Sequence record: MK327931.1
Source: Escherichia phage vB_EcoM_G17
Length of the DNA: 64,000 bases
Direction: 5' to 3' (one strand)
The notes beneath the pieces were generated by a model. It did not search any database, was not told the origin of the DNA, and saw nothing but the letters and a program-made list of their open reading frames with translations. The stretch's first letter is position 1; every line of letters starts with the position of its first letter. A program made the position numbers and the translations under genes. Of the stretch, positions 25,040 to 39,554 are shown in pieces.

Positions 25040-26176
25040 ATGTTACCTTTTGTTAGAATGTTAAATTATGGGAACGTAGCACCAGAAAAACTAAAAGTTC
25101 GTGATATTGTTGCAGGTGCTAATTCATTATTACTAATAACCGAGGATAATGAATTATGGGTGCGTGGTAATAATTCGTATGGCAAATTAGGTATAGGAAC
25201 TGATACTATAGTGAATGTAACCGAGTGGACTAAAGTTAGAGATGATGTTAAGTTTGCTTGTGCTAGTAATTTAGTATGCGTTGTATTAACTGTAGATAAT
25301 AAAATTTTCTACTGTGGTGATGAATGGTTTGAATCTGGTGGTTCGACAAGTTCTAAAGTTGTTACATGGAAAGATGTTACGACACAATTTAGTGCAGTGA
25401 ATCTAAGCACAGTACGTGAAATGAAAATGACTTCTTATTGTGTAGGATTACTTACAAATGATAATAGATTATATGCTAAAGGATATGATAATAACCAATC
25501 ATTTGGTGGTTCAACAAGCAAAGTTAATGCTGTATTAGTTGCGTCAAATGTTTCAAAATTCTACACTTCTCTATCTGGTACTATATATTCTAGTACTACT
25601 GGTGGTTACTACCGCTGTGGTATAAGCAATACTGGAGCATTGGGTACTAGCACAAATTTAACTTCTTATAATTTGTACTCTGCTCCCGAATTTGCATCCG
25701 AATGTGCAGTTGGTATGTCAACATTAAACTCTGGTATATTATATTATGATACTAATGGTAGCACTAGATATGTTATAGCAGGTCAAAATAGATATTATCA
25801 ACTAGGTAATTCTTCTTCAAATACCACAAACGTATATTCGTATACAGAATTAACCGGATATAGAGGCAGGTTTAGGGATTTGTGGAGTGATATGAATAAC
25901 TCTGTTCTTTCTTTTGCTATAAGCACAGATGGCAATACTTTATATTATGCTGGTACTAACACTACACTATCTTCTGGTGACCCTGGTGTTGAATATTCAT
26001 CTACATTTAAAGAAGTACCACACGGGTTTAATGATATAACAAAGGCGGCATCGTTAGCCTATCTATCTATAGTGCAAGATTCAACGGGATGGTATTATTC
26101 TGGAAATGCAACTACGTTATATGGTTTGCCATCGAGTGATGAATTTATACCATTACCATTACCAACAATAATTTAA
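25040..26176 (+). CDS. MLPF-family RCC1-like repeat protein R1
   Basis: N-terminus MLPFVRMLNYGNVAP; repeated G-x-N-x-(Y/G)-(G/Q)-LG-x-G motifs (NNSYGKLGIGT, QNRYYQLGNSS); start trimmed from 25022 to the ATG with AAGGAGGG SD. Confidence 0.7.
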   Translation: MLPFVRMLNYGNVAPEKLKVRDIVAGANSLLLITEDNELWVRGNNSYGKLGIGTDTIVNVTEWTKVRDDVKFACASNLVCVVLTVDNKIFYCGDEWFESGGSTSSKVVTWKDVTTQFSAVNLSTVREMKMTSYCVGLLTNDNRLYAKGYDNNQSFGGSTSKVNAVLVASNVSKFYTSLSGTIYSSTTGGYYRCGISNTGALGTSTNLTSYNLYSAPEFASECAVGMSTLNSGILYYDTNGSTRYVIAGQNRYYQLGNSSSNTTNVYSYTELTGYRGRFRDLWSDMNNSVLSFAISTDGNTLYYAGTNTTLSSGDPGVEYSSTFKEVPHGFNDITKAASLAYLSIVQDSTGWYYSGNATTLYGLPSSDEFIPLPLPTII

Positions 26177-26182
26177 ATACAG

Positions 26183-26211
26183 GCCAGTACTTGATACTGG
26201 CTTTTCTTTTT
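26183..26211 (+). terminator. Rho-independent terminator after R1 (GCCAGTA-N5-TACTGGC plus T-run)
   Basis: Inverted repeat followed by ttttctttttt; next promoter -10 TATAAT at 26226-26231. Confidence 0.6.
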
Positions 26212-26247
26212 TGTATTAAATATAGTATAATGAATAAGGAGGGAAAT

Positions 26248-27450
26248 ATGTTACCTTTTGGAAGAATGGTTAAGTACGCAAATATTGCACCAGGTCCAGA
26301 ACCTGTAGAGTTCTCAGATGTTTTACAACAACATTATACAAACTGTATGTATCTCCATAACCCAACTAATACTTTATATGGTTATGGTAGTAATAACTTT
26401 TACCAATTTGGTCTTGGGAATTCAGCAGCAGTTTCGTCATTTACAGTACTTGCAAGGAACTGTGCAGCCTTTTGGCTTGGTGTTCAAGGTTCATTGATGA
26501 TTGATTTGGATAATAAAATATACTACACTGGGTCGGTTGGTGCATTTTCTGATTATGGAGATGCAACACCTGTTAATGGTTATTTGACAACATGGACTGA
26601 TGTTACTGTTGCATTTAATAAAATAGGTGTTATGGCTAATATGATCAAGAGTGTATATATAGGTGAAAGTACTAGAATATTATTAACCGATGGTAGAGTA
26701 ATTGCGTGTGGAAGAAATACTAATGGTGAATGTGGCTCTGGTAATAAAAATTCCATCCCTACACTCACAGTTATGACTAATATGGGTGAAGTTACACATA
26801 TGGCATGTTCATTACAAGGAACGCACTATATCAAATCAAATAAAGATGCATGGTTTTGTGGTAAGGATAACTTTGGTGAAAGTGGATGTGGTGGTAGTTT
26901 TGTTGTATATTTGAACAAATTCGTGATTAGTAATGTAGAACATATTAGTACTACATACGATGTTACTTGGTGGTTTACTACTGGTGGGCCTGTATATTAT
27001 AGCGGGGCTAACAGTTCTGGACAAGCTGGTAATGGTACGACTACATCGGTAAATCAGCTAACACCAATTAGGAACACATCGGTCACGGTTGATGTAAGTA
27101 AGTACAGTACTTTTATTTGTCCAAGTAATATGGGAAATGCATCAATTGGTGCACCTATGGCACAATACGCACCATATGTTAGAAGTAGTGGTGCTAACTC
27201 ATATGGTCAAGAAGGTAATGGAACTAATACATTAGTTAGAACTTGGAATATTTTTAATCTTAGTGCAATAAGTGGTGGTTATGACAATGTTCTTATGGCA
27301 TCTAAAGATTGGAGCAGAACCATAATAATTACTAAAGATTATAAATTATATGCATGTGGTGGCTGGAATGGTAGTGGTGGTAGATTACCTGATGGCACTT
27401 ATAGTATTACTACACTAACATTAATGCCAACGCAGTTATGGCAACAATAG
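26248..27450 (+). CDS. MLPF-family RCC1-like repeat protein R2
   Basis: MLPFGRMVKYANIAP; motifs SNNFYQFGLGN, RNTNGECGSGN, ANSYGQEGNGT; start trimmed from 26191. Confidence 0.7.
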   Translation: MLPFGRMVKYANIAPGPEPVEFSDVLQQHYTNCMYLHNPTNTLYGYGSNNFYQFGLGNSAAVSSFTVLARNCAAFWLGVQGSLMIDLDNKIYYTGSVGAFSDYGDATPVNGYLTTWTDVTVAFNKIGVMANMIKSVYIGESTRILLTDGRVIACGRNTNGECGSGNKNSIPTLTVMTNMGEVTHMACSLQGTHYIKSNKDAWFCGKDNFGESGCGGSFVVYLNKFVISNVEHISTTYDVTWWFTTGGPVYYSGANSSGQAGNGTTTSVNQLTPIRNTSVTVDVSKYSTFICPSNMGNASIGAPMAQYAPYVRSSGANSYGQEGNGTNTLVRTWNIFNLSAISGGYDNVLMASKDWSRTIIITKDYKLYACGGWNGSGGRLPDGTYSITTLTLMPTQLWQQ

Positions 27451-27458
27451 GAGGGAAT

Positions 27459-37897: not shown

Positions 37898-37907
37898 GGA
37901 GAAAATT

Positions 37908-39077
37908 ATGTTACCTTTTGGAAGAATGTTAAAGTACGGAAATATTAAACCAACTCTTCCTGAAATAAAGAAATTGGATGGTAGTCAATTACATGTCGGA
38001 TTACTTTATAGTACAGGGAATATGTACATGCGTGGTTCTGGTTCGAACTATAAATTAGGTACAGGGGATGCTAGTGATGTATTAGGTGGTTGGGTACATG
38101 TACCCTATGAAGTTGATGATTTTTGGGCGTGTGTATCCGGTACATTAATAAAGACTGTTGATAATAAATTATATTGTGCAGGTCTATACATGGGTGGATA
38201 TTTTGGGGCTAGTGGTTCATATGTTAACTGGACTGAAGTAACTTCATTATTTGTAGGTATTGACGTGTCGCAAATAAAGAATATAGAATTTACGTCAGCG
38301 GGTACTTCCGGTAGTACACTAATATTGATGTTAGATGGTCGTTTATATGGGTTCGGTATGAACAGTAGATCTGAGTTAGGTGTTAATAACAAAGTTGTAT
38401 CTCCCATTCTTATAGATACTGGGGTAAGTGCAATAGGAGCACATAAGTTAGGCGGTTCATCGTTCCATTATATAAAAGGCGGTAAGTACTACAGATGTGG
38501 AACATCGGTTGGTAGTAATATTGGAAGTTCTTCTTTAACTACTTTTACGGTATTGAGTATTCCTGATAACGTTATATCTATGCAAATATTATATGACAAC
38601 GTACAGTTATTATGTTTAGGAAGTTCTGGATATAGTATCTATATGGCTGGTTCTAATGATTATGGTGGAAGAGGTGTTGGCGGTTCTACGGTTTATACTA
38701 CATTCAGGAAAATAGATCTTACAGGATTTGGTGTTGTTCCCAGTGAAATACTATTTGAAAATGCTGGAAATGGTTATGTTAATATATCAACTGATAGTAC
38801 TGGAGTATATACATGTGGTGGTGGAGCGGGTGTTAACGGTTTAGGTAGACCAACTAATGTAATACCAAGTTCACAGTTGGGAGTAGTTCAGTTCAGTACT
38901 GGAGTAGAACAATCAAATATAAGTCGTGTGTATTCACAGAGTTCGAGTTCTGTTATATATTGTATAGTCAATAATGAATTGTACTGGGCTGGTAGTAATT
39001 CATATTTTACTGATCAAACCACAAATACTGGTACACAATTTTCATTTATTAAGATGAAGGATATGCCTTCTGCTTAG
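37908..39077 (+). CDS. MLPF-family RCC1-like repeat protein R12
   Basis: MLPFGRMLKYGNIKP; motifs MNSRSELGVNN, SNDYGGRGVGG; AAGGAG SD. Confidence 0.7.
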   Translation: MLPFGRMLKYGNIKPTLPEIKKLDGSQLHVGLLYSTGNMYMRGSGSNYKLGTGDASDVLGGWVHVPYEVDDFWACVSGTLIKTVDNKLYCAGLYMGGYFGASGSYVNWTEVTSLFVGIDVSQIKNIEFTSAGTSGSTLILMLDGRLYGFGMNSRSELGVNNKVVSPILIDTGVSAIGAHKLGGSSFHYIKGGKYYRCGTSVGSNIGSSSLTTFTVLSIPDNVISMQILYDNVQLLCLGSSGYSIYMAGSNDYGGRGVGGSTVYTTFRKIDLTGFGVVPSEILFENAGNGYVNISTDSTGVYTCGGGAGVNGLGRPTNVIPSSQLGVVQFSTGVEQSNISRVYSQSSSSVIYCIVNNELYWAGSNSYFTDQTTNTGTQFSFIKMKDMPSA

Positions 39078-39084
39078 ATTTTAT

Positions 39085-39110
39085 GCCAGTGCCTTGTACT
39101 GGCATTTTTT
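39085..39110 (+). terminator. Rho-independent terminator after R12 (degenerate copy)
   Basis: GCCAGT..TACTGGC imperfect hairpin then attttttg. Confidence 0.5.
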
Positions 39111-39148
39111 GTCCTAAATATAATAACGATTTACATTTGGAGGATACA

Positions 39149-39554
39149 ATGCTACCCTTTCGAAGAATTATCACATCATCAAAAAAGAACATACAACCTT
39201 CTGTTACAAAAATAGCTTCATCTGATAAGACAGTTTTTGCCCTTATGTCAGATGGTACGTTGTACAGTAGAGGTTCTCAATAGTTTGGGTTATTAATATT
39301 TTTCTAATCATATTATAACTTTATTAGGTGTTTACTCAACTGGTTATAACACAAGACAATTAGGTATAGGTACACAAACCGATGCGTCGGCCTATACCAA
39401 ATGTGTACTACCAATAGAGATGAATAACGTATATGTTACAGCAACTTTATACAGAACTTACTTAACCGATGGTATACAAATTTACAGTACTGGACAAAAT
39501 ATTACAGACGGTGGAGTTGCCAGTACTGTATTTGTCAAAGATTCACCATTTTAG
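39149..39554 (+). pseudogene. decayed MLPF-family remnant R13
   Basis: 66 aa ORF (39083..39283) contains MLPFRRIITSS; downstream out-of-frame segment encodes a C-terminal blade (GYNTRQLGIGT...YLTDGIQIYSTG...VKDSPF) ending 39552-39554. Confidence 0.45.

Follow-up and report, generated by a model that had tools for sequence, protein, structure and literature searches.

Between positions 25040 and 39554 of the 64,000-nucleotide stretch of Escherichia phage vB_EcoM_G17 (MK327931.1) that we analysed, called the window below, lie thirteen consecutive plus-strand cassettes that all open with the same N-terminal peptide of 12-15 residues, MLPFxRMxxYGN(I)xP, which we refer to as the tag. A six-frame scan of the 64-kb window with M[LIV]PF.R[MLIV] gave 13 matches, all on the plus strand and at the starts of open reading frames (ORFs) from 25040 to 39149, and none outside the array in any of the six frames. 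Over the array, the DNA matches Escherichia phage Sharanji (OR545507.1; Asteriusvirus, 350 kb) at 100% identity; the genes there are gp106-gp118, 12 of them annotated as hypothetical and 1 as an RCC1 repeat protein, and we use these gene names here. Ten cassettes encode intact RCC1-like propellers with bodies of 369-400 amino acids (aa), one is a frameshifted propeller gene, one encodes a glycine-rich protein and one is a deletion remnant; the short products are 269 aa (truncated), 245 aa (glycine-rich) and 44 aa (stub). The cassettes, with their starts as the first coordinate, are listed below together with their orthologs in the related phage phAPEC6, where known from mass spectrometry (MS) of the virion.

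25040..26176, plus strand: gp106, tagged RCC1-like propeller, 378 aa; without ortholog in phAPEC6
26248..27450, plus strand: gp107, tagged RCC1-like propeller, 400 aa
27459..28568, plus strand: gp108, tagged RCC1-like propeller, 369 aa; 8-bp gap after gp107, upstream Shine-Dalgarno site only
28639..29808, plus strand: gp109, tagged RCC1-like propeller, 389 aa; modelled as seven-bladed, 81% identical to MS-detected phAPEC6 gp003
29880..31028, plus strand: gp110, tagged RCC1-like propeller, 382 aa
31100..32242, plus strand: gp111, tagged RCC1-like propeller, 380 aa
32313..33500, plus strand: gp112, tagged RCC1-like propeller, 395 aa
33573..34310, plus strand: gp113, tagged glycine-rich protein, 245 aa; body with predicted Pam3 gp24 head fold
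34381..35556, plus strand: gp114, tagged RCC1-like propeller, 391 aa; 87% identical to MS-detected phAPEC6 gp006
35565..36707, plus strand: gp115, tagged RCC1-like propeller, 380 aa; without ortholog in phAPEC6
36718..37897, plus strand: gp116, tagged RCC1-like gene with a frameshift near 37495; annotated product 269 aa (36718-37527)
37908..39077, plus strand: gp117, tagged RCC1-like propeller, 389 aa; 99% identical to MS-detected phAPEC6 gp010
39149..39554, plus strand: cassette 13, degraded remnant; degenerate tag MLPFRRI and first blade (44-aa ORF), then out-of-frame last blade

An earlier note, made from the letters of this DNA alone, had counted eleven RCC1-type bodies of about 370-400 aa behind the thirteen common N-termini. 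The thirteen cassettes are all there, and ten of the bodies are intact; the eleventh counts only if the frameshifted gp116 is included. This is a full-length RCC1-type gene, whose blades continue beyond the frameshift in another frame to 37897. The same truncation is found in 121Q and in phAPEC6 gp007 (98.5% identical, 30 kDa, three virion MS peptides), so the frameshift is either old and tolerated (ratio of nonsynonymous to synonymous substitution rates, dN/dS, 0.22) or bypassed by ribosomal frameshifting. It resembles the loss of 1 nucleotide (nt) within ...NS(H)GQLGNG.... Cassette 13 is internally deleted, and consists of the first blade, a stop and the last blade in a different frame. In 121Q there is also a 68-aa truncated copy of the gp114-type cassette (locus L008, minus strand, ORF start 8486), which together with cassette 13 and gp116 shows that individual cassettes are decaying, and that the process is ongoing.

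The suggestion in the earlier note that such an array is unknown among phages was overstated. An array of the same gene family at the same locus is present in phAPEC6, 121Q and PBECO4, with 13 cassettes likewise in phAPEC6; it has been described in phAPEC6 and 121Q, and is annotated in more than 30 genomes as 'DNA condensation'. The phAPEC6 paper speaks of 'eleven similar RCC1-like proteins', gives them the DNA-condensation label and speculates on a place in the inner body (Wagemans et al. 2020, PMC7247149), and it mentions neither the shared N-terminal peptide nor the non-RCC1 member nor the junction modules. In the literature outside subscription journals, the tag is also unmentioned in the CBB, fEgEco12 and JP4 papers and in a 2026 jumbo-phage review, and a full-text search for the MLPF peptide in phage gave a single unrelated match, on Borrelia cyclic di-GMP. 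The Sharanji paper does not mention the array, and the 2026 review does not mention RCC1, whiskers, phAPEC6 or 121Q. The array and its RCC1 character are already published, the shared N-terminus apparently not. What is new here is the tag and its sharing across folds, its retention in the mature virion, its confinement to a single clade, how large the tagged repertoire is, the identity of gp113 as a fibre head, and the cassette junctions.

The propeller bodies

Nine of the ten intact propeller proteins reach the Pfam gathering score for RCC1 or RCC1_2 (PF00415 and/or PF13540), with gp117 and the N-terminal part of gp116 just under it. The full-length RCC1-like model WD40_RLD (PF25390) gives E-values from 1e-12 to 1e-31, yet these matches stay under its 150-bit cut-off. 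An AlphaFold model of gp109, built on 21 sequences, has a predicted local distance difference test score (pLDDT) of 88.7 and a predicted template modelling score (pTM) of 0.88, and in Foldseek it matches the seven-bladed propellers UVR8, HERC2-RLD, RPGR and RCC1 (template modelling score, TM, 0.65-0.81; E about 1e-22 for the matches at TM 0.77-0.81), with no phage virion structure among its structural matches. As far as this model goes, it is correct to describe the bodies of the array as seven-bladed RCC1-like propellers, as the earlier note did from the repeats.

The bodies have diverged strongly behind a conserved N-terminus. Compared in pairs, the 10 intact paralogs have a mean identity of 0.79 in residues 1-15 and of 0.20 in the bodies, and the best 15-column window outside the N-terminal region reaches only 0.44. 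A C-terminal Y-x-x-G motif, which had been taken for a second conserved element, does exist, with Y367 and G370 kept in at least 90% of the sequences, but we rejected it as a separate shared tail module because it belongs to the last blade, as its ordinary blade motif.

The deposited annotation would make these proteins regulators of chromosome condensation, that is, DNA-condensing proteins that organise the packaged genome, and we give this almost no credence. Its basis is the Pfam RCC1 matches and the proposal in the phAPEC6 paper (PMC7247149), but the name has been carried over from the fold alone, and the gp109 model is closer to UVR8 (TM 0.77-0.81) than to RCC1 itself (TM 0.65-0.69). Where RCC1 proper has a basic N-terminal tail or surface, the N-terminus here is the hydrophobic and aromatic MLPF tag, and the Ran-GEF activity of RCC1 proper would lack a substrate in bacteria. 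With neither a basic tail nor an overall positive charge, the propeller proteins are near-neutral (isoelectric point, pI, 5.1-8.6, the truncated one 9.2; K+R 5-7%; S/T/N/G about 40%), a composition that, judged from the sequence, is not the profile of a DNA-condensing protein. The same tag is moreover found on lectin and fibre-head folds that are unlinked to DNA.

The glycine-rich head

The body of gp113 is predicted to combine a TNF-like fold with a glycine-rich lattice, as in the receptor-binding head of the Pam3 tail fibre gp24, and gp113 is the only member of the array with such a Gly_rich_2 or Pam3 gp24-type head. It matches external tail proteins that have been visualised, and the closest known glycine-rich adhesin heads are those of Pam3 gp24, the Bxb1 tail wing brush gp33 and the S16 gp38 type (PMC9608196). 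Receptor recognition in Pam3 falls to the equivalent head, which a separate N-terminal domain attaches to the baseplate (PMC9608196). That domain of gp24 is alpha-helical and serves docking and trimerisation, whereas in gp113 the 15-residue tag alone stands in its position.

The tag as a functional peptide

Searched for in other phage genomes with tblastn, the tag matched 60 records, all of them Rak2-like jumbo phages (Asteriusvirus, Mimasvirus, Eneladusvirus and relatives). In the Sharanji record it matched 12 places, all accounted for by the array, and the same search did not find it in RaK2 and K64-1. A scan of IMG/VR with a degenerate DNA pattern found the tag only in genomes of 348-378 kb and in two fragments. 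For a wider census, a profile of the first 32 residues was run against 1.84 billion representative proteins (E<=1e-3) and gave 106 clusters, 104 tagged and 2 noise, and 80 clusters match a tag-trimmed RCC1 profile. The tag starts at residue 1 in 99 of the tagged clusters, stands behind a mis-called start in four and occurs as an MFPF variant in one; in 103/104 it is at the true N-terminus. M1, P3, F4, Y10 and N12 are invariant in all 99 clusters that start with the tag, and G11 is kept in 96/99. A second subtype, MLPFPIISN, is present in XbC2 and BF and is not found in Sharanji. To the extent that such searches can tell, the tag is restricted to one clade of jumbo phages.

Across these phages it heads RCC1, Kelch, Laminin_G_3 and glycine-rich bodies. 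CBB has seven consecutive tagged genes (Kelch, Laminin_G_3 and unknown folds) in addition to CBB_536/537 and one more, XbC2 has at least eight consecutive ones, and BF and GAP32 have several each. An uncultivated 355-kb genome encodes a 667-aa protein with tag, RCC1 and Kelch in one chain (locus L019, minus strand, ORF start 4200), and Serratia phage BF has a glycine-rich head behind a tag of the second subtype, MLPFPIISH (locus L010, minus strand, ORF start 5852), so the bodies behind the tag can be both fused and swapped. Homologs of the LamG type in myoviruses of ~148 kb, annotated as 'virion structural protein', lack the tag and align from residue 16-19 onward only. Outside the clade, glycine-rich homologs have the same body behind another N-terminus of the M(L/I)E(L/M)L type, which may be another clade-specific docking peptide on the same head. 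No shared analogue of the tag was found on the glycine-rich and LamG proteins of PVP-SE1, where the N-termini differ.

In the AlphaFold models the tag does not belong to either kind of body. Residues 1-10 of gp109 have a pLDDT of 53 and residues 1-18 lie outside the fold with low confidence, and in gp113 residues 1-11 have a pLDDT below 50 and also lie outside the fold; the tag is predicted to be disordered on these two unrelated folds. A role as a 'velcro' strand of the propeller was rejected, as residues 1-18 are outside the modelled fold and the tag also heads folds that are not propellers.

It could be argued that the peptide is a functionless by-product, and that the junction and the first codons are kept as DNA for regulation, translation initiation or recombination. 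In Sharanji, conservation does extend from ~70 bp upstream to 45 nt inside the coding sequence, with 88% nt identity in the tag; codons 1-7 are free of synonymous variation there, and the breakpoints of rearrangement against phAPEC6 fall in the junctions. However, even within Sharanji there is synonymous variation at Y10, G11 and P15, and four cassettes have kept the tag while the hairpin and promoter of the junction are missing. In XbC2, CBB and BF the tagged genes are 9-12 bp apart and the upstream DNA is unconserved, yet the peptide remains: the tag DNA (36 nt) has an identity of 0.67-0.75, compared with 0.33-0.44 in the upstream flank and 0.32-0.36 in the downstream codons, and 22-34% of the codon pairs for identical tag residues are synonymous variants. 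Synonymous differences within the tag next to unconserved flanks mean that selection acts on the peptide, and the five residues that are invariant in 99 diverged clusters agree with this, which makes a by-product of a DNA element highly improbable. Four lines of evidence, from selection, fold independence, swapping and structure, establish the tag as a peptide module with a function rather than as a side effect.

Tagged proteins in virions

The virion proteome of phAPEC6 contains gp003, 005, 006, 007, 009 and 010, listed as 'DNA condensation proteins' (PMC7247149). All six (6/6) are among the 13 MLPF cassettes of that genome, and Sharanji gp109 (81%), gp114 (87%), gp116 (98.5%) and gp117 (99%) are orthologs of detected proteins. 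Tagged proteins are also found in the virion proteomes of CBB (CBB_536, 537, 548, 549, 551, 552 and 553, with a sequence coverage of up to 51%) and of JP4 (JP4_577, 581 and 582). The published proteomes together hold 16 tagged proteins, from three independent sets and two genera. The CBB authors expected the whisker genes to be among the CBB virion proteins that are absent from GAP32, and 4/6 of the CBB virion proteins without a GAP32 counterpart carry the tag; a link between the tagged proteins and the whiskers of CBB is suggestive only.

It is hard to reconcile these proteomes with intracellular effectors, which would bind host proteins or glycans in the cell for takeover or anti-defence and use the tag as a localisation or turnover signal, and which would have reached the MS samples by carry-over. 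RCC1 and Kelch propellers are protein-interaction scaffolds, poxvirus Kelch arrays (cited in the CBB paper) modulate the host, the sigma-70-like boxes of the junctions could mean early expression, and the array sits among small early-type genes. Against this, carry-over would have to account for 16 tagged proteins in three independent virion proteomes of two genera, in other myoviruses the LamG relatives that lack the tag carry the annotation of virion structural proteins, and gp113 has the fold of a tail-fibre head, so we hold effectors to be very unlikely. Nor does anything support the anti-defence decoys that the earlier note gave as an option.

The published peptide-level MS table of CBB contains peptides that span the tag: LLQYGNK, after R, is residues 7-13 of CBB_553; YANVIVEYATK, after K, is residues 10-20 of CBB_548; and LFEYANVIIPPNYK, after R, is residues 7-20 of CBB_536. 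The JP4 supplement is at protein level only and is silent on tag retention. With these tag-spanning peptides found in mature CBB virions, the tag is still there on the virion protein after maturation, and this argues against a targeting sequence that is cleaved in the manner of T4.

The capsid-targeting sequence of T4 is ~10 residues long and is cut by the prohead protease after Glu, and its cargo is internal and basic. Reportedly, this sequence of the internal proteins (IPs) was described by Mullaney and Black in 1996, and the polymorphic IP loci by Repoila and co-workers in 1994. Like the tag, it is a conserved N-terminal peptide on unrelated proteins of a hypervariable locus, and it specifies incorporation into the virion; our array shares with the polymorphic T4 loci just this pattern of a short conserved N-terminus on unrelated proteins. 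The tag could in the same way direct proteins into the prohead, as in IPI-III and Alt, and the products would then be internal, part of the inner body or ejected, possibly with an anti-defence role. The phages of this clade are distantly related to T4 and have a prohead core protease and a scaffold (phAPEC6 paper Table 1, PMC7247149), phAPEC6 has an inner body for which the authors proposed the RCC1-like proteins as candidates (PMC7247149), and the MS peptide counts in virions are low. However, tag residues 7-20 are covered by peptides in mature CBB virions, so the tag has not been removed, and the conserved Glu cleavage motif, (L/I)-x-E, is missing, with K/N/E/Q at position 9. The proteins are near-neutral (pI 5.1-8.6, K+R 5-7%) and not basic, and their lectin, propeller and fibre-head folds are typical of external binders, with gp113 matching visualised external tail proteins. 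We consider capsid targeting unlikely.

Junction modules and rearrangement

Seven junctions of the array carry a module of ~70 bp, in which a hairpin with T-run is followed by a promoter-like box with Shine-Dalgarno site and the ATG, and an eighth hairpin follows gp117:

26183..26243, plus strand: junction module, hairpin GCCAGTAC-nnn-GTACTGGC and T-run, then TTAAATATAGTATAATGAATAAAGGAGG, with -10-like box and Shine-Dalgarno site
28575-28634, 29815-29874, 31035-31094, 32249-32307, 33508-33567 and 34318-34376, plus strand: further junction copies, hairpin first
39085-39103, plus strand: hairpin with degenerate promoter part, after gp117
25010..25039, plus strand: promoter-like box and Shine-Dalgarno site AAATATGATATAATGAATAAGGAGGG, 5' of the first cassette; half a hairpin further upstream

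All eight hairpins lie within the array, with 0.10 expected by chance, and so do all seven copies of the 28-nt promoter and Shine-Dalgarno box, with 0 expected. The box has sigma-70-like -10 elements (TATAAT/TATAGT), and the 3' arm of the hairpin holds a weak -35 (CTGGCA). The cassettes at 27459, 35565 and 36718 begin 8-10 bp after the preceding stop and that at 37908 follows the out-of-frame end of gp116, so the apparent transcription units are 106, 107-108, 109, 110, 111, 112, 113, 114-117 and the remnant. The corresponding arrays of CBB, XbC2 and BF are operon-like and lack the junction module.

The PeSL elements of T4-like phages (PMC2839356, PMC4122927) likewise join a stem-loop terminator and a promoter-like box at gene boundaries in a variable region, and as with PeSL, the breakpoints between related phages fall within the repeats. 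Unlike PeSL, the Sharanji module takes in, beyond the Shine-Dalgarno site, 45 coding nt that make up the tag, and it is confined to one gene family.

The order and content of the cassettes differ between phAPEC6 and Sharanji. With phAPEC6 as A B C D E F G H I J K L M, Sharanji reads X1 D C E A B F G I X2 J L M, with two cassettes unique to each phage and orthologs that are 52-99% identical. BLAST segments between the two end and overlap at the junctions, and the identity steps between 82% and 98%. The dN/dS of orthologs is 0.08-0.42, while dS differs about 50-fold between neighbouring cassettes (0.03-1.47). Low dN/dS with such uneven dS among neighbours points to purifying selection, mosaic ancestry and an exchange of cassettes that are old alleles. 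Targeted hypermutation and gene-wide positive selection were rejected on the gene-wide dN/dS, and substitutions in gp109 are not more concentrated in loops than in strands (0.20 vs 0.17). According to the fEgEco12 paper, two near-identical phages differ strongly in only a few proteins, and 'chromosome condensation regulators' are among these. Divergence in the array is, as the comparison of these genomes would have it, a matter of old duplication and cassette exchange under purifying selection, and not of local hypervariation.

Directly 3' of the array, gp120-gp127 on the minus strand (window 40239-43019) are at least 8 tandem paralogous multi-pass membrane proteins of 104-141 aa. The tagged array of CBB likewise adjoins 'putative membrane proteins', CBB_539-547, with denV nearby, and by this matching neighbourhood the tagged array and the membrane-protein array are syntenic across genera. 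Over the window (1-64000) the GC skew is negative to ~20 kb, positive at 20-40 kb and then negative again; the positive skew from ~25 to 39.5 kb coincides with the array, which is the main plus-strand block. No tRNA genes were found in the window.

A probable docking peptide for binding heads

The explanation that we favour, with moderate confidence, is that the N-terminal tag is retained and serves as a docking peptide, by which alternative binding heads are attached to the virion, and that the cassettes are shuffled at their conserved terminator-promoter-tag junctions. The products would be accessory virion proteins, each a compact beta-rich binding head, of which eleven would be RCC1-like seven-bladed propellers and one a Pam3-type glycine-rich head. 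The tag would not be part of the fold; unstructured on its own, it would stay on the mature protein and insert into one class of virion site. As all members begin with one and the same peptide, their products must have sites in common or compete for them, and each particle would get a mixture of adhesin or receptor-binding modules. The array would have grown by tandem duplication and been reshuffled between phages by homologous recombination at the junctions, that is, at the hairpin, the promoter-like box, the Shine-Dalgarno site and the tag codons.

There are precedents for such a peptide. N-terminal peptides of 7-11 residues dock the secondary receptor-binding proteins of K1-5 and SP6 (Latka et al. 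2019, PMC6872550), and 'conserved peptides' do the same in phages of Klebsiella, among them the sister jumbo phages K64-1 and RaK2 (PMC6872550). In K1-5/K1E/SP6, G7C, the Klebsiella phages and K64-1/RaK2, as in Sharanji, a group-specific peptide of ~7-15 residues at the extreme N-terminus stands on otherwise unrelated virion binding proteins encoded next to each other. The array has what would be expected of an anchor of this kind, a short group-specific N-terminal peptide and, in orthologs and relatives, virion components that keep it. The bodies in those systems are trimeric beta-helix depolymerases, usually with their own peptide and site for each protein (PMC6872550), whereas arrays of the Sharanji type have one peptide on 12 or more proteins per genome and bodies that are propellers, lectin folds or a glycine-rich head. 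By analogy with these docking peptides, the likeliest docking site would be the tail, the baseplate or the 'hairy' appendages. The tail-fibre-head fold of gp113, the lectin and propeller folds typical of external binders and the docking-peptide precedent together favour an external, tail-associated location.

The idea of a diversified binding repertoire behind an N-terminal docking tag was already put forward in the earlier note. Selection on the peptide, its disorder on unrelated folds, its presence and retention in virions and the fold of gp113 all speak for this; that docking is the function of the tag, that the location is external and that the role is one of binding is what we infer from them.

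Several points weigh against the favoured explanation. To our knowledge, RCC1 propellers are not established as receptor-binding modules of phages. Docking of the K1-5 type uses T4gp10-like domains, and Pfam found no T4 gp9/10-like domain, and hence no such partner for the tag, in seven large baseplate and fibre proteins of phAPEC6, although sequence profiles may be too insensitive for this. The virion evidence comes wholly from relatives and orthologs and not from Sharanji, the MS counts are low at 1-8 unique peptides per protein, and the first tryptic peptide, MLPFxR, was not observed in the CBB data, so a loss of residues 1-6 is possible. Finally, the CBB structural genes are reported with a T4-like late motif, ATAAATA, and the promoter-like box of the array resembles sigma-70 and not this motif.

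In phAPEC6, gp245 (locus L024, 16652-26620) is a protein of 3323 aa without Pfam match, encoded directly after the baseplate wedge gene, and gp256, of 1841 aa, lies near it. Both are candidates for a hub or fibre that carries the docking sites. We can also imagine, tentatively and with more doubt than belief, that the tag is a universal, dockerin-like peptide of 12 residues, by which a dozen or more probably monomeric heads would share multivalent sites, e.g. on the 'hairy' whiskers or on fibres at the centres of capsid hexamers. On this view, the adhesins of a virion would form a stochastic mosaic, taken from a pool of 80 or more propeller types that is common to the clade and is reshuffled at the junctions encoding the tag.

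Conclusions

More than 30 deposited jumbo-phage genomes label genes of this family 'regulator of chromosome condensation' or 'DNA condensation protein', while the evidence points to accessory binding proteins of the virion, and both the annotation and the idea of an inner-body role should be revisited. As to what the 'hairy' appendages of phAPEC6 and CBB consist of or carry, the tagged proteins are a concrete candidate that can be tested. The junction modules make a family of structural genes into exchangeable cassettes, and with them the PeSL idea comes to cover a module that reaches into coding sequence. A peptide of 12-15 residues is apparently sufficient to bring unrelated folds into the virion, and it would be a handle both for finding the receptor and for displaying or swapping modules on jumbo phages.

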